A DNA stretch of 64,000 nt from Spirochaetia bacterium (GTDB lineage: Bacteria; Spirochaetota; Spirochaetia; SZUA-6; Bin103). The translations under genes were made by a program, and so were the position numbers. Under the pieces are notes generated by a model. That model saw only the letters and a list, made by a program, of their open reading frames with translations. It was not told where the DNA came from and made no database searches. Where the stretch lies: positions 2,624,001 to 2,688,000 of the forward strand of contig OZ241863.1 of assembly GCA_965203055.1 (NCBI GenBank), in the 5' to 3' direction. This document shows, piece by piece, positions 23,913 through 33,707 of this stretch. Within the stretch, counting starts at the first letter, position 1; the number at the start of each line of letters is the position of its first letter.

Positions 23913-24812
23913 CTACACGCGCGGCGCCCGCGACGGGTCGGCGGGCAGCCCGTCCTTGAACACCAGAAAGTAGAGGTTGGGCTCCTGATCGTGGGGATTG
24001 AGGCCCAGGCGGCCCAACTCGGTCCCGATCTCGACCCGGTCGCCGACGTCGACGAAGGTCTCGGCGTTGCCCAGGTAGCCATAGATGTAGCCCAGCGGGT
24101 TCTCGATCAGCACCACCTGGCCGAAACCGCGGCTCGGGCTCGCCCAGCGCACCGTGCCGGACGATACCGAGCGCACCGACGCGCCCTCCGTGCCGCTGAT
24201 CTTCAGGCCGGAGAGCTTGCCGGTCAACGGCGTGCGCGCACCGGGAATCGGCCACAGCCGGTTGGTGCCGCTGCCGCGGGCCGGCGCGGCAACTCTTGGG
24301 TTTGGCGCCGCCGCGCGCGGCGCGGCGGCAACGGCGGCCTGGGTCCCGAGGGCGGGCGCATCGGGAACGTCCGGGATGAGCAGCATCTGTCCGGCGTGCA
24401 CCTGGGTGGGGTCGAGAATCTCGTTGGCGGCCAGGATCACGGCCGGCTCCACGCCGTGGGCGCGGCCGACCGAGTAGATCGTGTCGCCCTTGCGCATGAC
24501 GTACGCGCGCGGAATGGTGAGCTCCTGGCCGGTACTGAGGCGCGTCGGATCGGCGATGCCGTTGACCTGCTGCAGCAGCTTGACCGTCACGCCATGCAGC
24601 TTGGCGATTCGGTAGAGCGTCTCACCGGCGGCCACGCTATGCACGCGCGCAGGCGACTCCGCGCCCGCCGCGGCTGCGCCCGCGGCCATGGCGAGGATCG
24701 CAAGCAGCGGCGCCAAGTGCCGGCGCGCGGTCAACTTGCGCCGCGCTGCGGGGGTGCTGGTAGATGTCGGCCTGCCGGCGGGGGGGCGGCTGCCGGCCGC
24801 GGTCAGCCCCAT
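23913..24812 (-). CDS. Double-LysM, M23-fold (NlpD-like) protein
   Basis: Signal peptide, two LysM repeats (HSVAAGETLYRIA; YVMRKGDTIYSV), C-terminal M23-like domain with degenerate metal ligands (PNLYF instead of PHLHF). Confidence 0.85.
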   Translation of the reverse strand: MGLTAAGSRPPAGRPTSTSTPAARRKLTARRHLAPLLAILAMAAGAAAAGAESPARVHSVAAGETLYRIAKLHGVTVKLLQQVNGIADPTRLSTGQELTIPRAYVMRKGDTIYSVGRAHGVEPAVILAANEILDPTQVHAGQMLLIPDVPDAPALGTQAAVAAAPRAAAPNPRVAAPARGSGTNRLWPIPGARTPLTGKLSGLKISGTEGASVRSVSSGTVRWASPSRGFGQVVLIENPLGYIYGYLGNAETFVDVGDRVEIGTELGRLGLNPHDQEPNLYFLVFKDGLPADPSRAPRV

Positions 24813-24991
24813 AGCCCTAGTTTCGGATTCACGGCGCAAAACTGTAGACACGGCCGAGGAACACGGCCGCAGGGGCACGGGGCTCGCCCACCCCGGCCCG
24901 GGCGCGCGGCAGGCCCGCACGCCACACGGCCCACCGAACGAGGCCCCGGGCCGCGCGCGGATGATTGAACCACACCGGATGAAACAGGGTA

Positions 24992-25064
24992 TCGGGCTGG
25001 GGAGACTTGAACTCCCGACCTCTCGGTCCCGAACCGAGCGCGCTAGCCACTGCGCCACAGCCCG
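24992..25064 (-). tRNA. tRNA-Pro (CGG)
   Basis: Cloverleaf CGGGCTG...CAGCCCG-A; anticodon arm CTCGG-TTCGGGA-CCGAG; T-loop GTTCAAGTC; no encoded CCA. Confidence 0.95.
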
Positions 25065-25074
25065 AGGAACTGGA

Positions 25075-25148
25075 CGGGAGCGACGGGACTTGAACCCGCG
25101 GCCTCCGGCTTGACAGGCCGGCGCGATAACCACCTTCGCCACGCCCCC
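25075..25148 (-). tRNA. tRNA-Asp (GTC)
   Basis: GGGGGCG...CGCTCCC-G; anticodon arm CCGGC-CTGTCAA-GCCGG; T-loop GTTCAAGTC; followed by TCCA rather than CCA. Confidence 0.95.
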
Positions 25149-25164
25149 AGTTAGCAGCTTGCTC

Positions 25165-25193
25165 AATATAGGCCCCCGCCGCCGGACTGTCAA
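25165..25193 (-). promoter_or_regulatory. sigma70 promoter of the tRNA-Asp/tRNA-Pro pair
   Basis: TTGACA-17 nt-TATATT, 16 nt upstream of tRNA-Asp. Confidence 0.8.
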
Positions 25194-25292
25194 CGCCCCG
25201 GCCGACGACCTTGCTCGACCTTGCCGAGGCGCCGAAATACTCCCCTTGCCGCGGCGCTTGCGGTACGCTATCATCGGCCGCGCATCCCATTC

Positions 25293-26843
25293 ATGGCCAA
25301 GACCCGCAATCGCCCCAAGTCGGCGCGCCCGCATGCCGCCATAGCGGCGCAGCGTTCCAGGCATCCGCTGCTCTATGTCGGCAGCGTGATCGTCCTCGTC
25401 GTCATCACCGTCACCTTCATCGGCACGCCCGCCATCGGGCGCTTCGCCGGAGTCGGCTCGACGGCCGTATTCGGAACCTATGACGGTATCGATATCGAGT
25501 ATCGCCGAGGCAACTACTTCGATCGGCAGATTCTGAGCATCTCCCAGCAACGGCGCGCGGCCGGCGCTGCCCAGGACAGCGACGCCGAGGCGCGCGCGGT
25601 GGTGCGCGAGGCATTTCAGCGCGCGGCGTTTCGCACGGCGGTGCTCGCCGAGACCACGCGCGCCAATCTCGCGGTTTCCGACGAGCTGATCGACGGCGAG
25701 CTGATTCGCTCCGGCCCCTACCTGATCGGCGGCGTGTTCAGCGAAGAGCAATTCAACGCCACGCCGGCGTCGCAGCGGGAGATCAACCGCCGCCTGATCG
25801 AAGAGCAGCTCCTGGAGCGGCAGTATTTTGCCGATCTGGGGGGGCTCAACACCAGCTCGCACGCGGCCTCCTTCTTTCGCCGGATGGCGGCCACCGAGCG
25901 CCGCTTCGCGGTGGCGTCGTTCAGCTTCGGCGATCTGCCGGAGGAGGAGCTGCGCGCGTTCGGAACCGACAACGCCGCCCAATTCCGGCGCATCAAGCTC
26001 AGCCGCATCCTCCTGCGCAGCGGCGGCGGCGAGGCCGAGGACGTGCTCGGCCGATTGCGCGATCAGTCCGCCACCTTCGAGGAGCTGGCGCGGCTCTATT
26101 CGGTGGACGACATCGCCACCGGCGGTGACGTCGGGTGGAAGTACTTCTACGATCTGGAGCGCGACTTCGAAACGGCGGAGCCGGTGGAGGCGGTGTTCGC
26201 GCTGGCCGCGGGGGAGCACAGCGAGGCGCTGGCCAGCCGCTTCGGAGAAGTGATCTACCGCGCCGACACCGCGGCGGTGGCGCCCGACTTCGCCGATGCC
26301 GAGACACTGGCGGCGGTGCAGGACTATCTCAGCCGCTACCAGCGCGGCGTGATCGACGACTACTACGCCGCGCAGGCCGCGCAGTTCCGGCAGCGGGCCC
26401 AGGACGACGGTTTCGCCGCCGCCGCCGCCGCCCTGGAGGTGGAGGTGGTCGAGAGTGACTTCTTCCCGGTCAACTTCCGCAACCTGATTCCCGTGAGCGG
26501 CGTGCGCGCCGGCGACAGCGGCGTATTGCGCGCCGCACCCTACTACGAGGAGTTCTTCAAGCGCGCCTTCAGCCTGGAGCCAGGCCAGGTGTCGGACCCG
26601 ATCGTGCTGGACGCCCAGATCCTGGTACTGGAATTGCTGGAGGAACGGAGCGCCGACGAGGCGGCGCTGGACCGGGTGGAGAGTTATCACGCCTACTTCG
26701 CGGCCTCGGCCCTGGATCAGGACCTGCGCGCGCAGGTGTACGATTCGAACCGCTTGGTGGACGACTTCGAAGAGGGTTACCGCGGCTTTCTGCGCGCTCT
26801 GGCCACACCGGTCCAGGGCCCGCCCACGCAGGCCGCGTTCTAG
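25293..26843 (+). CDS. SurA/PpiD-like periplasmic chaperone, parvulin-type PPIase
   Basis: N-terminal TM anchor, SurA-N-like region, parvulin motif TFEELARLYSVD...GGDVGW. Confidence 0.8.
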   Translation: MAKTRNRPKSARPHAAIAAQRSRHPLLYVGSVIVLVVITVTFIGTPAIGRFAGVGSTAVFGTYDGIDIEYRRGNYFDRQILSISQQRRAAGAAQDSDAEARAVVREAFQRAAFRTAVLAETTRANLAVSDELIDGELIRSGPYLIGGVFSEEQFNATPASQREINRRLIEEQLLERQYFADLGGLNTSSHAASFFRRMAATERRFAVASFSFGDLPEEELRAFGTDNAAQFRRIKLSRILLRSGGGEAEDVLGRLRDQSATFEELARLYSVDDIATGGDVGWKYFYDLERDFETAEPVEAVFALAAGEHSEALASRFGEVIYRADTAAVAPDFADAETLAAVQDYLSRYQRGVIDDYYAAQAAQFRQRAQDDGFAAAAAALEVEVVESDFFPVNFRNLIPVSGVRAGDSGVLRAAPYYEEFFKRAFSLEPGQVSDPIVLDAQILVLELLEERSADEAALDRVESYHAYFAASALDQDLRAQVYDSNRLVDDFEEGYRGFLRALATPVQGPPTQAAF

Positions 26844-26871
26844 CGGGCCCTATAGCTTAGCTTAACTAGTT

Positions 26872-28722
26872 TCAGTCCGCGGCCGGCTTGAGCACCGCCA
26901 GGAACGCGGACTTGGGCAACTGCACGTCGCCGATCTGCTTCATCCGCTTCTTGCCCTCCTTCTGGCGCTCCAGCAGCTTGCGCTTGCGCGTGATGTCACC
27001 GCCGTAGCACTTGGCGGTAACGTCCTTGCGCACCGCGGACACGGTCTCGCGCGCAATGATCTGGCTGCCGACCGCCCCCTGGATCGGCACCTTGAACTGA
27101 TGGCGGGGAATCTCGTCTTTCAGGCGCCGGCACATCTCATGCGCGCGCTGGCGCGCGCTGTCGGTGAACACCAGTTGCGCCAGGGCATCCACGGCGCGGC
27201 CGTTGAGCAGAATGTCGAGCCGCACCAGACGGGAGGCGCGGTACCCGGTCAACTCGTAGTCGAATGACGCGTACCCGCGGCTGGCCGACTTGAGGGTGTC
27301 GTAGAACTCGTACACCACGTCGGCCAGCGGCATGTCGTATACCAGCTCCACGCGCCGCTCGTCCAGGTAATTCATGGCGTGCTGCACGCCGCGCTTGTCG
27401 AGGCACAGTCTGATCACGGCGCCGACATAGTCGGTCGGGGTGATGATGCTGGCGCGAATGAACGGCTCCTCGGCGTACTCCACCTGCGCGGGATCGGGGT
27501 AATCGAGCGGATTGTCGATCAGCAGCTCGCGGCCGTCCGTCGCCACCACGCGGTAGCGCACGGTCGGCACGGTGACGATTACCGCCAAGTCGAACTCCCG
27601 CTCCAACCGTTCCTGCACGATCTCCAGATGGAGCATGCCGAGGAAGCCGCAGCGAAAGCCGAACCCGAGCGCCGCCGAACTGTCCTTCTCGTAGCTGAGC
27701 GCGGCATCGTTGAGGGCCAGCCGGTCCAGCGCCGCGGTCAACTGGTCGTAATCGTCGGCATCCACCGGATAGACCGACGCGAACACCACCGGCTTGACCT
27801 CGCGAAACCCGGCCAGCGGCGCGCTGCACGGCGCGTCATCGGCGGTCACCGTGTCACCCACCCGGGCGTCCGCGATCCGCTTCACCCCGGCCACCACGTA
27901 GCCGACGTCGCCGGCAACCAGATGCGGCGTGCGCCGGGTAGTGCCGACGCCAAAGGTCCCGGTCTCCTCGACCGTATGGACGCCGCCCGTCGACCAGAAA
28001 CGCAGCGCCATGCCGGGCTCGATGCAGCCGTCGAACAGCCGGACGTGGATCACTACCCCCCGGTAGGGATCGTAGGCGGAGTCGAAGATCAGGGCGCGCA
28101 GGGGATCGTCCGCGCCGCCGCCGGGCGGCGGCACCTGCGTGACGATTGCCTCCAGCAGCTCGTCCATGCCGGTGCCGTGCTTGGCCGACACGCGGATGGC
28201 GCGGTCCGCATCCAGCCCGAGGTCGCGTTCGATCTGCTCCGCCAGCCAGTCGTAGTCCACCCCCGGCAGGTCGGTCTTGTTGATCACCGGAATGATCTCC
28301 AACTCCTGCTCCAGCGCCAGATAGAAGTTGGACAGCGTCTGCGCTTCGACCCCCTGCGTGGCATCGATCAACAGCAACGCGCCCTCGCACGAACTGATGG
28401 CCCGCGACACCTCGTAGGTGAAGTCGACGTGGCCGGGGGTGTCCACCAGGTTGAGGCGGTATTCGGTGCCGTTCACCCGGCAGGGAAGCGATACCGCCTG
28501 CGACTTGATGGTGATGCCGCGCTCCCGTTCGATCGGCATGGAGTCGAGCATCTGATCGTGGAAGTCACGTTCCGACACCATGCGGGCGCGCTGGATGAAG
28601 CGGTCGGCCAAGGTGGACTTGCCGTGGTCGATATGGGCGATGATGCAGAAATTGCGGGTGGTCCGGCGCGCCCTCCCGGCCTGATCCGCGCCGCCGGTCC
28701 CGCCGGTACCGCTAGAGAAAAT
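26872..28722 (-). CDS. lepA: Translation elongation factor 4 (LepA); start codon uncertain, candidate ATT at 28722
   Basis: RNFCIIAHIDHGKSTLADR lies in frame upstream of the track's TTG 28611; also RERGITIK, DTPGH, NKTD, GFRCGFLGMLH, KCYGGDITRKRKLL. Confidence 0.93.
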   Translation of the reverse strand: MFSSGTGGTGGADQAGRARRTTRNFCIIAHIDHGKSTLADRFIQRARMVSERDFHDQMLDSMPIERERGITIKSQAVSLPCRVNGTEYRLNLVDTPGHVDFTYEVSRAISSCEGALLLIDATQGVEAQTLSNFYLALEQELEIIPVINKTDLPGVDYDWLAEQIERDLGLDADRAIRVSAKHGTGMDELLEAIVTQVPPPGGGADDPLRALIFDSAYDPYRGVVIHVRLFDGCIEPGMALRFWSTGGVHTVEETGTFGVGTTRRTPHLVAGDVGYVVAGVKRIADARVGDTVTADDAPCSAPLAGFREVKPVVFASVYPVDADDYDQLTAALDRLALNDAALSYEKDSSAALGFGFRCGFLGMLHLEIVQERLEREFDLAVIVTVPTVRYRVVATDGRELLIDNPLDYPDPAQVEYAEEPFIRASIITPTDYVGAVIRLCLDKRGVQHAMNYLDERRVELVYDMPLADVVYEFYDTLKSASRGYASFDYELTGYRASRLVRLDILLNGRAVDALAQLVFTDSARQRAHEMCRRLKDEIPRHQFKVPIQGAVGSQIIARETVSAVRKDVTAKCYGGDITRKRKLLERQKEGKKRMKQIGDVQLPKSAFLAVLKPAAD

Positions 28723-30550
28723 GGTTCTGCTCCAGTGGCGCCAGCAACAGCACGGACGCCTCCAGGTAGCCGGCGCGCCGTTGCTTGCTCAGTACCCGCA
28801 GGTAGGCCAGGCGCGCTGCCTCGTCGACGCCGAACTCCTCGATCCGCACCGGGTCGTCGACGGAGATGCGCGACTCGTCGGCAATCGAACCCGGCACCAC
28901 CCGAGTTACGCGGTGCTCCTCCCGCAGCAGCGTGCGGCCGATCCGTTCCACTCCGAGGCCGAACAGGGGCAGCAACACGTTGTCGCGCAGGTCGCGCTGC
29001 AACGCAACCTCGACCGGAGAGAACGGGCGCGGTTCCAGACGTACCAGCAGACTCCGCCGGCGCCCGTCACGCTGCGCCACGACCTCTACCAGGGTCGGCG
29101 CGTCGTAGCTCAACAGATGCCGCTGCACGCCGACCAGTCCCTCCACCGCGTGGCGCGCCACGCGTACCAGCCGGTCGCCGGCGGCAAGCCCGGCTCGGGC
29201 CGCCGGCGAGCCGGGCAGCACGTAGGTTACCACCACCGCGCCGCCGGCGCGGTGCGCGCTGACGCCGATCCACAGATGTTGCACGGCGCCGCCCCGGTAC
29301 AGCTTCGGCAGCACCCGCTGAATCCAGTGGGAGGAAACGCCGAAGTTGATCCCCTCGAACTGTTCCCATCCCGCAACGGTAATGCCGATCAACTCCCCGC
29401 GCTCGTCGAGCAGCGGCCCGCCGCTGTTGCCGGGGTTCAGCGGGGCGTCCACCTGCAGGGCCTCGCCCATCTGCAGAAAGCGCCGGCCGGTAGCAGAGAT
29501 GATACCGGAGGTGACGGTCTTGGACAGCGAGAGATCGCCGGGAGTGCCGATTGCCACCACCTTGTCGCCCGGAGCCAACGGGCCGGCGCCGGTCGAGCCG
29601 AACACGTGCCCCGGCTCCACCTCGGTCTTCAGCAGCGCCAGGTCGAAGATGCGGTCGTAGCCGACCACCTTGGCCGGCACCCGCTCATCGCCGCGCTCGG
29701 AGAGGCGGATGAACAGCCGCGAATAGCCCTCGTAGGTCGGGTCCACTTCGCTCCGAATGACGTGGTAATTGGTCAGCAAGTGGCCCCGGCGATCAATGAA
29801 GAACCCGCTGCCGATCACCCGATCGGGAATGCCCACGCCGCGGCGCAACTCGACGCCCCGGTCCACCCAAACGGTAACCGTCCCGCCGAGCAGGTCGGTG
29901 AACGGCGGCGGCGGCGGCGACTCCGGCAGCGCCGGCGCCAGCCCGCGCGCCGCGGCCGCCGCCGCCAGCGTCGTGAGGGCGCGCGCGTTGCCGGTACGCT
30001 CGGCCAGCCCGCCAAGCGCCTGCAGGTCCGCCGCCGTATAGGGCTCCCCCTCGGCTACGGCGCGCAGCCCCAGCAGCAGCGCGCTCACCTCCTGTCCGGC
30101 GGCGGCCAGGCGCTGCGCCGCGCGGCGGTACAGCTCGGGCAGCGACCTGCCGCCGGCGCTCCGAGCGGCGTTCGGCACGGCCGGCGCGGCGGCCGCCAGT
30201 GACCGCACCAGCGCGGCCGCGTCCAGAAAGCGCTGCTCTTGCCAGGCCAGCTCCAAGTCGTGGTTCATCGAGCGCAGCGCGGCGCGGCGCAGCCCGGCCA
30301 GGTCGGCGGCGGCCACCGGCGCCGAGGCGTCGGTTTCCAGGGCCCGGATACGCTGCATGGCGCGCAACGAGTTGCCGCCGGCGATCTGGCGCTCGATTTC
30401 CTCCGCGACGTAGGCGGTGGCCGGCGGCTCCGCCGTGCCGTCCCCGCCGCCGGCGGTGGCGCAACCGGCCAGCGCCAGCAGCGGCGCCAGCGCCCACGCG
30501 CCCGCCGCGCGGCGCGCCGGCGACCGCCGCCGGGCGCGCGGCGGTCCCAT
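28712..30550 (-). CDS. HtrA/S1C serine protease lipoprotein with PDZ domain(s)
   Basis: Lipobox LALAGC; GSGFFI, TNYHVI, DLALLK, NPGNSGGPL triad motifs; PDZ (PGSPAARAGL). Confidence 0.88.
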   Translation of the reverse strand: MGPPRARRRSPARRAAGAWALAPLLALAGCATAGGGDGTAEPPATAYVAEEIERQIAGGNSLRAMQRIRALETDASAPVAAADLAGLRRAALRSMNHDLELAWQEQRFLDAAALVRSLAAAAPAVPNAARSAGGRSLPELYRRAAQRLAAAGQEVSALLLGLRAVAEGEPYTAADLQALGGLAERTGNARALTTLAAAAAARGLAPALPESPPPPPFTDLLGGTVTVWVDRGVELRRGVGIPDRVIGSGFFIDRRGHLLTNYHVIRSEVDPTYEGYSRLFIRLSERGDERVPAKVVGYDRIFDLALLKTEVEPGHVFGSTGAGPLAPGDKVVAIGTPGDLSLSKTVTSGIISATGRRFLQMGEALQVDAPLNPGNSGGPLLDERGELIGITVAGWEQFEGINFGVSSHWIQRVLPKLYRGGAVQHLWIGVSAHRAGGAVVVTYVLPGSPAARAGLAAGDRLVRVARHAVEGLVGVQRHLLSYDAPTLVEVVAQRDGRRRSLLVRLEPRPFSPVEVALQRDLRDNVLLPLFGLGVERIGRTLLREEHRVTRVVPGSIADESRISVDDPVRIEEFGVDEAARLAYLRVLSKQRRAGYLEASVLLLAPLEQNHFL

Positions 30551-30587
30551 CACCGGCAGCGAACCGCGCGGCGGCCACTGCGGGCCG

Positions 30588-32525
30588 CTAGCTCGCCTTC
30601 TGGGAGGAATCTCCGGCGGTGGATGAGCGCGGTGGGAAGCCGAGCAGATCACGAATTTCGACATCGTCCAGGGTCTCTTTCTCGACCAGCGTCGTCGCCA
30701 GCAACACGAGCTGATCCTGATGCTCCCTCAGTACGTCGATGGCTCGCGTCAGGCGCGAGCTCACGATCTCGTTGACCTCGGCATCGATCACCCGGGCGGT
30801 CTCCTCGGAGTAGTCCTTGTGGCGGGCGATCTCCTTGCCCAGGAAGATCGGTTCTTCCTTCTGGCCGTAGGCGATGGGACCCAGGACCTCGCTCATGCCC
30901 CACTCGCAGACCATCTTGCGCGCCAGGTCGGTAGCCTGCTCGATGTCGTTCTGCGCGCCGGTGGTGGTCTCGGCGTAGATGATCGTCTCCGCCGCGTAGC
31001 CGCCCATGGTGATCGCTATGCGGTCCATCAGCCAGGCCTTGCCGCGCGAGTAGTAATCTTTTTCCGGCAGTGAAAACGCAATCCCGAGGGCGCGTCCATG
31101 AGGGACCACGGTCACCTTGTGGAACGGGTCGGCGTTTTCCAGATAGTAGTGCAGCAGGGCGTGCCCGGACTCGTGGTAGGCAATCATTTCCCGCTCCTTC
31201 GGCTCCACTATCTTGGAACGCCGCGCCACCCCCATCATGATCTTGTCACGGGCTTCCTCGAAGTCGATCATCTCGACCCGTTCCTTGCTCTTGCGGGCCG
31301 CCAACAGCGCCGCTTCGTTGACGATGTTGGCCAGATCCGCTCCCGAAGTCCCGCCGGTGGCGCGCGCCACGCGGTTCAAGTCGACTCCGGCCGCGATGGG
31401 AATCTTCTTGATGTGGATGCCGAGAATCTCCTCACGGCCGCGCACGTCCGGCATATCCACCACCACCTGGCGGTCGAACCGGCCGGGGCGCAGCAACGCC
31501 GGGTCCAGTACGTCGGGACGGTTCGTCGCGGCAATGATGATCACGCCTTCCTTGGTGTCGAAGCCATCCATCTCGACGAGCATCTGATTCAGGGTCTGCT
31601 CGCGTTCGTCGTGCCCCCCGCCGTAGCCCGCGCCGCGCGTGCGGCCGACGGCGTCGAGCTCGTCGATGAACAGGATGCAGGGGGCGTTCTTGCGTCCCTG
31701 TTCGAACAGATCACGCACCCGACTGGCGCCCACGCCGACGAACATCTCGACGAAATCGGAGCCCGACATGTGGAAGAACGGTACGTTGGCCTCGCCGGCG
31801 ATCGCCTTGGCCAGCAGAGTCTTGCCGGTGCCCGGCATACCCACCAGCAGCACGCCCTTGGGAATCCGCGCCCCCATCTTGGCGAACTTGCCCGGGTTCT
31901 TGAGAAACTCCACCACTTCCTGCAACTCGTACTTGGCTTCGTCCTGGCCGGCGACATCCGTAAAATTGATTTTCTTACTGGTGTCCACGTAACGCTTGGC
32001 GCGGCTCTTGCCAAACGAAAAAGCGCGATTACCGCTGCCCTGAACCTGCCGGAACATGAACCAGATGAAGAAGAAGCCGAGCACCCACGGCAGAAAGTCG
32101 ATGAATACGCGCAGCGGAGATACGTTGCGCGGGCCGCCCGTTATTCGTACCGCCTTCTCCTGCAGCTTGCGCAACAACTCGGGATCGGAATAGGGAATGG
32201 TAGTCTTGAAGTACTCTCCCGCCTGGCCTTTGAGCTGCCCCTGAATCTCGTAGCCGTCGATTATCTTGACGGCCTCCACCATGTCCTGGTTGAGGTAATT
32301 CAGAAACACGGAATAGGCTATTTCCTGCGTCAATGATCCTTGATTGTAGACGAAGAAGAAGATGAAGAAGACGATCAGTACCAGCAGCGTGATGAGGGCG
32401 ACACGATTGTTGAAGTTGAATTTCGGGAACCCCGAGTCGGGGCCCTTCTTCTGCGAGTTGTTGTTGTCGCCGCTACTCACGCTCACTCCTCGGAACTCGT
32501 CGGCTGGCAGCCCGCCACCGGACAT
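30588..32525 (-). CDS. ftsH: ATP-dependent zinc metalloprotease FtsH
   Basis: Two TMs, [42 protein letters not shown]. Confidence 0.97.
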
Positions 32526-32657
32526 ACCGCGGGCCGCCGCGCGGCTGGCCCGCCTGCCTTAAGATAGCGTGTCCGGCGCGGCAGGACAACCGACCGGCCT
32601 GACCGTCTGACCGCGGCGCCCGCACCGGGTCCGGCGGCGGCCCGGAGCGCGGCGCCG

Positions 32658-33707
32658 TCACGCGGCGAGGCGGGTCACCAGAACCTGCCGGCGGTCGCAC
32701 GCAATGCGCAGCCCGTGACCGGTAAGCTGCAGATCGCGAAGCGGTCCCCCCTCCCGCAACAAGGGCTGCAGGAAGCGGCGCGGCAGGCGCGGCCGCTCGC
32801 TGCGGGAGCTGCGCCCGGGACTGAGGACCGCGTCGCATACTCGAAACAGCGCCGCCTCCCGTACCGGCGCTGCCGCAGCCCAGAACGCCGCCGCGGCAAC
32901 GCTGTAGCGCACTCTCCGCCGCGCGTCGCGGCCGTAGCGCCACGGGATCTCGCGCCGCGCGTCCTGTTCGACGCGCTGCCACAGCGCCGCGCTGCCGGCC
33001 GCCAGCCGCGGCAGGTTGCCGGCCATTCCCGGCACCGCGGCCTCCAACGCCGGCACCAGAGCGCGCACCCGGTTGCGCAGCATCTGCGGGTCGCCGTTGC
33101 TCGGGTCCTCCAGCACCGGCAGCCCGGCGGCGGCGGCGTAGCGGCGCAACGCCGCGCGGCGCACCCCGAGCAGCGGGCGCAGCACCAGTCCGCCCTGCCG
33201 CGGGATGCCGCCGCCGCGCAGACTACCCTGCAACGCGCGCATCAGAATCGTTTCCAGGTCGTCGTCGCGGTGGTGGCCGACTGCCACCGCGCAGGCTCCG
33301 CAGTCCGCCGCCACCTCCATCAGAAAGGCGTAGCGCCGCTCGCGGGCGAGCTCTTCCAGACTGCGCCCGGTCGCGCCCCGTTGCCGGCGGAGCTGACCGG
33401 CCGGCAAGCCGCCCTCGCGCAGCGTCAGGCCGAGGCCGCGCGCCTGCCGCCGGACCGCGGCCCGTTCCGCGGCGCAGGACGCGGCGTCGCGCAACCCGTG
33501 ATCGTAGTGCGCCGCAACCACGCGCAGGGTCAGTTCCGGCGCCAGCCGCGTCAGGACCAGCGCCAGCGCCAGCGAGTCGGCGCCGCCGGACACGGCAACG
33601 ACTACGGTGGCCGGGCGCGGCAGCGCGGCCTGCCGCAGCGCCTCCCGCGCCGCGCGTAGCGGGTCGCACGCGGCGCCGCCGCGGCGCCGCTCAGACCGGC
33701 GCGCCAC
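32658..33707 (-). CDS. tilS: tRNA(Ile)-lysidine synthetase
   Basis: AVSGGADS, DHGLR, ARERRY, HHRDD, RPLL, DPSN, RNRVR. Confidence 0.92.
   Translation of the reverse strand: MARRSERRRGGAACDPLRAAREALRQAALPRPATVVVAVSGGADSLALALVLTRLAPELTLRVVAAHYDHGLRDAASCAAERAAVRRQARGLGLTLREGGLPAGQLRRQRGATGRSLEELARERRYAFLMEVAADCGACAVAVGHHRDDDLETILMRALQGSLRGGGIPRQGGLVLRPLLGVRRAALRRYAAAAGLPVLEDPSNGDPQMLRNRVRALVPALEAAVPGMAGNLPRLAAGSAALWQRVEQDARREIPWRYGRDARRRVRYSVAAAAFWAAAAPVREAALFRVCDAVLSPGRSSRSERPRLPRRFLQPLLREGGPLRDLQLTGHGLRIACDRRQVLVTRLAA

Follow-up and report, generated by a model that had tools for sequence, protein, structure and literature searches.

A lepA gene without a canonical start codon in a spirochaete, and a candidate AUU start inside the upstream htrA gene

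How is a near-universal ribosome factor made from a gene that has no canonical start codon in front of its conserved core? The question is raised by lepA, encoding EF4, of a Spirochaetia bacterium (GCA_965203055.1, contig OZ241863.1), which lies directly downstream of an htrA-like protease gene in the window analysed here, a stretch of 64,000 nucleotides (nt) that covers positions 2,624,001-2,688,000 of the forward strand and whose own numbering is used below. We propose that lepA is now probably started at an AUU codon (ATT 28722) within the end of htrA, and that this start is coupled to the termination of htrA translation; the codon used, the coupling, the role of a predicted hairpin over the start and the level of output are all deduced from the sequence. 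The genome is a single contig of 68.8% GC in the same class as the Borrelia-type spirochaetes discussed below, and the runs that contain it are mostly sponge and marine metagenomes.

An intact lepA without a canonical start codon

The single lepA copy of this genome encodes a product that scores 934.2 bits against TIGR01393 (curated cut-off 533.9) and carries five Pfam domains (PF00009, PF03144, PF14492, PF00679 and PF06421; the G domain, II, III, V and LepA_C). Read on the minus strand, its frame is uninterrupted from 28788 until the stop codon at 26874-26872; the upstream in-frame TGA, at 28791-28789, lies inside htrA, and between 28788 and 28614 the frame holds no ATG, GTG, TTG or CTG. The first canonical codon, a TTG, is shared at the same site by the congeners G003 and G004, both of which have an ATG of their own. 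The preliminary description had reported the missing start, the TTG, the TGA, the ATT and a GGAG placed 7 nt before it, the ATT overlapping the htrA end, and all of these were reproduced at the positions that it gave. The match to PF00009 starts at position 3 of 188 for a product begun at the ATT and at position 21 for one begun at the TTG. A public gene-caller record (P0121, window 26872-28581), found on 20 contigs, gives LepA as 569 residues with the P-loop missing, and a gene truncated in this way by gene callers would be scored as broken.

The absence of a canonical lepA start is real and is a property of the species. The junction was compared in four runs out of the 21 listed, each from a different study (three of them independent if X1 is the source sample, as it may be), and in 4/4 runs a single contig crosses the htrA-lepA junction with no gap and no differing letter from 28568 to 28845. 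This identity rules out a base error as the cause, the alternative that the preliminary description had raised. The loss is also not part of a genome-wide relaxation of start selection, which we ruled out from 242 orthologue pairs with G010 and 122 with G003 (400 kb of each congener): 9 and 2 pairs, respectively, were flagged, and on inspection lepA was the sole true case, the other flagged pairs being conserved untranslated DNA or overlapping frames. The IF3 protein of this genome is ordinary and its infC gene is started by TTG.

Judged by its sequence, lepA is intact and under purifying selection. None of the marks of a pseudogene (stops, frameshifts, relaxed selection) was found over its 1.8 kb, and synonymous and non-synonymous changes on its branch number 34:7, compared with 36:4, 33:4 and 64.5:19.5 in three congeners. 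The 281 columns in which at least 95% of 142 homologues agree are all unbroken. At seven positions this LepA differs from every one of the four sister proteins; none of the seven lies in such a column, where 49% of random changes would hit one or make a stop, and six occur in homologues. Furthermore, the strain differences within lepA are synonymous in 3/3 cases, against 23% expected per change, a small count; as the strains all lack a canonical start, these changes point to selection that continued after the start was lost.

A candidate AUU start and its proposed coupling to htrA

Upstream of the conserved RNF motif the open frame holds a single ATT, ATC, ATA, CTG or ACG codon, ATT 28722, which bears out its earlier choice as the best near-cognate start. 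The codons one change away from ATG are AGG 28761, ATT 28722 and AGG 28674 upstream of the motif and ATC 28644, 28641 and 28632 and AAG 28620 within it. The GGAG before the ATT is a candidate Shine-Dalgarno (SD) sequence; its duplex with the 16S tail of this genome has an energy of -5.6 kcal/mol, which is also the median value for 1032 putative downstream starts. Of 5350 gene-end frames, 44 (0.8%) have an ATT with a comparable SD and remain open over 25 codons, and overlaps of 11 nt with canonical starts occur in 14-16 cases elsewhere in the genome. The ATT is read in htrA as part of His and Phe codons, and CAT-TTY is rare among His-Phe pairs within genes (44/637). A predicted hairpin of -22.1 kcal/mol covers the SD and most of the ATT; its z-score is -3.4 to -3.9 (z -3.39, 2/200 shuffles), and one of 500 gene ends is as low.

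Two kinds of known system resemble this arrangement. The start of infC and pcnB in E. coli is an AUU that lowers output, infC encoding a translation factor and following closely on another gene (PMC1780047, 10.1101/063800, PMC3592434), and lepA shares with them an in-frame AUU upstream of the conserved N-terminus, the lack of a usable canonical codon and an SD at working distance; those cases, however, are proven by experiment, and infC is under feedback through IF3, whereas the lepA start is predicted from sequence. Pairs of genes translated by termination-reinitiation (PMC6728339) have, like htrA-lepA, a start in the last codons of the upstream gene that overlaps its stop, an SD within that gene and predicted structure over the start, structures that have been linked to coupling in E. 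coli (PMC6728339), but their starts are canonical and their overlaps mostly of 4 nt, where this one would be non-canonical with an overlap of 11 nt. Hairpins over SD and start strongly cut fresh initiation, re-initiating ribosomes melt a weaker hairpin, and a second cistron with an AUU is translated (all PMC3592434). Measured in E. coli, AUU gives 1-2% of the output of AUG, and 57 other codons give less (10.1101/063800). The congeners, too, mostly start lepA just behind an upstream stop, 5/9 without an SD, and starts placed directly behind the stop fit coupling.

The sequence of events that we favour would run as follows. The ancestral lepA start would have overlapped the htrA stop by 4 nt, and a short deletion at the junction would have removed this start while the end of htrA was kept. 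Ribosomes terminating on htrA would now back up by 11 nt and re-initiate at the AUU, held by the GGAG, while the hairpin over both would limit fresh initiation, such that EF4 output would be low and tied to htrA translation. The product would be an EF4 of 616 residues with a flexible leader and the expected N-terminus M-F-S-S-G-T-G-G-T-G-G.

Several observations weigh against this reading. The GGAG results incidentally from conserved Leu-Glu codons of htrA, and it is present as well in G003 and G004, whose lepA starts lie further downstream. When any of ATT, ATC, ATA, CTG or ACG is allowed together with an SD, 546/5350 gene-end frames qualify, and CAT stands before T in 16/63 cases in the last ten codons of genes, so that the codon choice is just mildly unusual. 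A hairpin over the start would depress initiation, and its energy is reached by 300/2675 gene ends and by 14-20% of 5000 synonymous recodings; a view in which selection for the hairpin accounts for each of three synonymous changes is weakened by this common energy and by the Leu change, which may stem from the deletion. A stronger SD-like sequence, GGGAGG, lies further downstream, where no near-cognate codon stands at working distance (CGG 28665, ACC 28662). The ATT start is known from one species, shared by its strains and not by congeners, so that the conservation in relatives that would be expected of a start of the infC and pcnB type is lacking save in the distant Borrelia-type family. The terminal branch of lepA is 0.014 long compared with 0.005-0.010 in its sisters, branch-wide ratios are blind to a loss within the last few percent of a branch, and the history of the start loss is deduced from sister proteins, not sister DNA.

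The GGGAGG also gives grounds for placing the start at another non-canonical codon, AGG 28674, GCG 28671, or CGG 28665 or ACC 28662 behind it, which we consider unlikely. It is the strongest SD of the region (an SD this strong is found at 0.9% of 1500 random positions after stops) and is at textbook distance from CGG 28665, and GCG 28671 is at the position of the canonical codon in 8/9 congeners; the product of such a start would be of usual length. Yet CGG, ACC and GCG are two changes away from AUG and are among the 57 weak codons (10.1101/063800), the GGGAGG abuts GCG with zero spacing, and the sisters have Gly-Gly-Ala at this site, which leaves the SD one base from ordinary coding sequence. 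That lepA lost its start very recently and is untranslated, as a young pseudogene in a symbiont, is also rather improbable. E. coli without lepA has no obvious growth defect (PMC4245954), the sole candidate start site would be hidden by the hairpin, and the end branch is rather long, a set of facts that would suit such a loss; against these stand the intact reading frame and conserved columns and the synonymous strain differences described above, the fixation of the start loss in four studies, the presence of lepA in 190/191 genomes (PMC1780047) and the low odds of an ATT with SD by coincidence.

Initiation at the first canonical codons, TTG 28611 or ATG 28581, which are also the choices of gene callers, is very improbable, as the resulting LepA would lack the P-loop and a GTPase without G1 cannot bind GTP; moreover, the TTG has no SD (-1.7), and the 16 codons upstream of it keep their amino acids with 2-6 synonymous differences from congeners. 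Least probable of all is a HtrA-LepA fusion made by read-through or by a +1 frameshift at the htrA end, the latter proposed in the preliminary description. The +1 position of the lepA frame, the TTT-C, which permits re-pairing of tRNA-Phe, and the rare TTT and CAT codons before the stop would allow for a slip. The HtrA N-terminus, however, carries LLALAGC, which we take to be a lipoprotein-type signal, is retained in relatives and would carry a fusion out of the cytoplasm, TTT is followed by a common Leu codon and not by a stop, and the frame relation of htrA and lepA varies among congeners. CTC, the codon before the htrA stop, re-pairs badly. Frameshifting of the prfB type combines a slippery codon just ahead of the stop with an SD 3 nt upstream, a conserved site and a useful fusion, a pattern that htrA does not show: CTC stands before the TAG, and the GGAG ends 12 nt before it.

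Loss of the ancestral start and lepA starts in other lineages

What lies between the end of htrA and the conserved core of lepA appears to be a spacer, but it is, by comparison with sister proteins, inherited coding sequence whose first seven codons were lost in this species only. The nearest LepA proteins (P0128, P0123, P0131 and P0130; 98.3-98.5% identical) begin M-R/K-T-S-G-E-T and continue with the same Gly/Thr-rich G-T-G-G...R-R-T-T extension, and the 18 codons here match P0128 without gaps at 14 residues, P0128 extending seven residues further, to a called start. In two further lineages the LepA extension is 25 residues long and begins M-R-T/A-S, and the 29 called cluster members with an intact LepA N-terminus have called starts; the sister starts are gene-caller output. 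The sisters' second residue toggles between Arg and Lys, which suggests a codon starting with A and hence an overlap of the lepA start with the htrA stop by 4 nt. AGR codons make up 2.8% of the Arg codons of this genome, and the 4-nt start/stop overlap is its commonest overlap, found in 263/1032 assigned pairs. A sister HtrA (P0150, 96% identical) has the same C-terminal end as in this genome. It is thus probable that the sister lineages start lepA on the htrA stop and that a short deletion removed that start here. DNA of the sister lineages was not found in two metagenome scans or by exact protein look-ups.

Other origins of the missing start find no support. A recent mutation of GTG to GCG at 28671, the codon that the preliminary description had suspected of being a misread GTG, is ruled out because the sister proteins also have Ala there. 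The spacer is not a scar of a mobile element: a 15-mer is shared with ten other sites, all inside ISKra4-like transposase copies, and the match does not extend.

In all nine congeners with a lepA match the Asn of RNF is preceded, at 6 or 10 codons, by an ATG, GTG or TTG, and none uses an ATT start (a tenth congener genome, 81% complete, gave no lepA match). The preliminary description had proposed a comparison of the junction in relatives, in which a conserved ATT with SD would be informative and a canonical start would count against its proposal; the relatives do have canonical starts, and this species, in four studies, is without one, so that its interpretation of the lepA start is supported in part. 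As ATT and SD are not conserved in the genus, the change is, on this comparison, a species-level event and not an old regulatory device.

We read 119 spirochaete lepA loci (this one, 36/38 and 82/141 from two listings). In 117 of them a canonical codon stands no more than 14 codons before RNF; the two without one are this genome and L102, a member of the Borrelia-type family f12 (L101, L102 and L187-L214; 30 of 31 loci read). As L101, one of the 117, belongs to the same family, canonical starts are found in 116/116 loci outside f12 and this genome. Within f12 an ATT lies six codons before the motif Asn in 30/30 loci, preceded by an SD whose energy ranges from -7.3 to -12.7 kcal/mol; the sequences become conserved abruptly at this ATT, and 17/30 loci have no canonical codon in frame. 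The case for the ATT start in f12 depends on the SD and the conservation boundary and not on the invariance of the codon, which is weak evidence as 5/11 all-Ile columns use one codon. In 13 f12 genomes an annotation that chooses a nearby TTG or GTG would be wrong. Outside the spirochaetes, 78/80 lepA stretches (80 of 120 read) have canonical starts; in the remaining two, L238 and L252 from unrelated metagenome-assembled genomes, a canonical codon lies one base out of frame, likely owing to assembly indels, and we rejected both as non-canonical starts.

An AUU-started lepA is not wholly new, as it has an in silico precedent in the same gene and class; what we describe here is a second, recent and independent origin. 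In a list drawn from 1314 translational GTPases, Borrelia burgdorferi and Bacillus licheniformis are the only non-canonical cases, full-length lepA needing an AUU in both (PMC1780047). The f12 sequence matches that of B. burgdorferi in supplement 1 of PMC1780047. Like lepA of this genome, that of B. burgdorferi has no canonical start before G1 and an SD-led ATT. The Borrelia-type ATT, however, occupies the position where lepA normally starts, 29-63 nt beyond the stop of the preceding gene; it has a strong SD and is family-wide. The ATT here is placed 17 codons further up, within the preceding gene, has a modest SD and occurs in one species; the different site and the restriction to a single species argue for an independent and recent origin. 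In B. licheniformis lepA was reported to be restorable only with an AUU (PMC1780047). In a close relative (L225), however, there is an additional base at this site and a GTG lies 15 codons upstream, as in other Bacillus loci, and the AUU case probably reflects the deletion of a single base in the B. licheniformis record. The idea that lepA is specially prone to AUU starts rests on two lineages and the list in PMC1780047.

Few bacterial AUU starts are proven. A recent and datable switch from a canonical start to AUU in a near-universal ribosome factor, with sisters 98% identical as controls, would show how such starts arise; the route that we propose is a deletion at the junction that was compensated by a near-cognate codon within the gene upstream. 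Together with the Borrelia-type AUU, it makes testable whether EF4, whose role is still debated, senses the quality of 30S subunits through its own start codon. By analogy with infC, lepA may conceivably regulate itself via start-codon fidelity, a state that spirochaetes would have reached at least twice, although we regard this as doubtful. If EF4 ran short, immature 30S subunits would be admitted to translation and would be more tolerant of near-cognate starts, raising EF4 synthesis from the AUU. The sponge symbiont would then represent a recent second instance, observed shortly after the switch and tied in addition to translation of the envelope-stress protease HtrA. In E. coli without lepA initiation at CUG and AUA is raised, that at AGG is not, and complementation rescues the effect, which is described as minimal compared with that of rbfA and ksgA (PMC6868393); the codons tested there did not include AUU. 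In the open-access literature, subscription journals lying outside our coverage, we found no test of a lepA AUU start, of its family-wide conservation or of lepA self-regulation, and the accessible sections of PMC1386717 and PMC4245954 hold nothing on the lepA start.

The locus and its genus

The features of the locus are collected in the table. A simple scan gave no promoter-like or terminator-like sites between htrA and lepA, and from 24000 to 33000 of the window no Rfam family was found apart from two tRNAs. These, tRNA-Asp and tRNA-Pro (24992-25148), lie between a SurA-like gene and a LysM/M23 peptidase gene (23913-24800), and the long open reading frame at 23913-26690 given by ORF finders crosses both and is no gene over most of its length.

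Table. Features of the htrA-lepA locus (window positions) and of the ISKra4-like copies (genome positions)
Feature	Position	Strand	Remarks
lepA (EF4)	26872..28722	minus	616 codons if ATT 28722 is the start; conserved core from R of RNF at 28656
First canonical codon, TTG	28609..28611	minus	Leu directly after G1 motif; product from TTG would lack the P-loop
Inherited 18-codon N-terminal extension (G-T-G-G...A-R-R-T-T)	28657..28710	minus	apparent htrA-lepA spacer
GGGAGG, strong SD-like	28672..28677	minus	abuts GCG 28671; -10.8 kcal/mol
Predicted 44-nt hairpin	28702..28745	minus	covers SD, most of ATT and htrA stop
htrA-like trypsin/PDZ protease gene	28712..30550	minus	immediately upstream of lepA; stop TAG 28714-28712
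ATT, proposed start	28720..28722	minus	11-nt overlap with htrA end; made of His and Phe codons; putative initiation
GGAG, candidate SD	28730..28733	minus	7 nt before ATT; from htrA Leu-Glu codons
ftsH	30588..32525	minus	same gene run, upstream; TIGR01241 811 bits, cut-off 600
ISKra4-like copies	G000:C1:274993, 313266, 397962, 624991, 861098, 1220202, 2807353, 3353367, 3966163, 4374081		

Among the ten genus genomes lepA is inverted in place, between htrA and a convergent SurA/PrsA-like gene, in five (L005, L006, L007, L009 and L010, compared with L001-L004 and L008). Four of the five inverted genes have a TTG start just behind the SurA-like stop; in G009 the upstream flank is cut by a contig end. 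In G010 (L004, C1:4779569-4784356) lepA directly follows ftsH with no htrA between them, this being the only locus of that genome examined for htrA. The infC gene of the genus (L048-L056; here G000:C1:1078882-1079379) has a TTG with a conserved strong SD in 9/9 genomes, and an out-of-frame ATT overlaps the TTG. Finally, the ISKra4-like transposase gene, whose score is below the family cut-off, has at least ten copies in the genome, one of them rearranged (L335).

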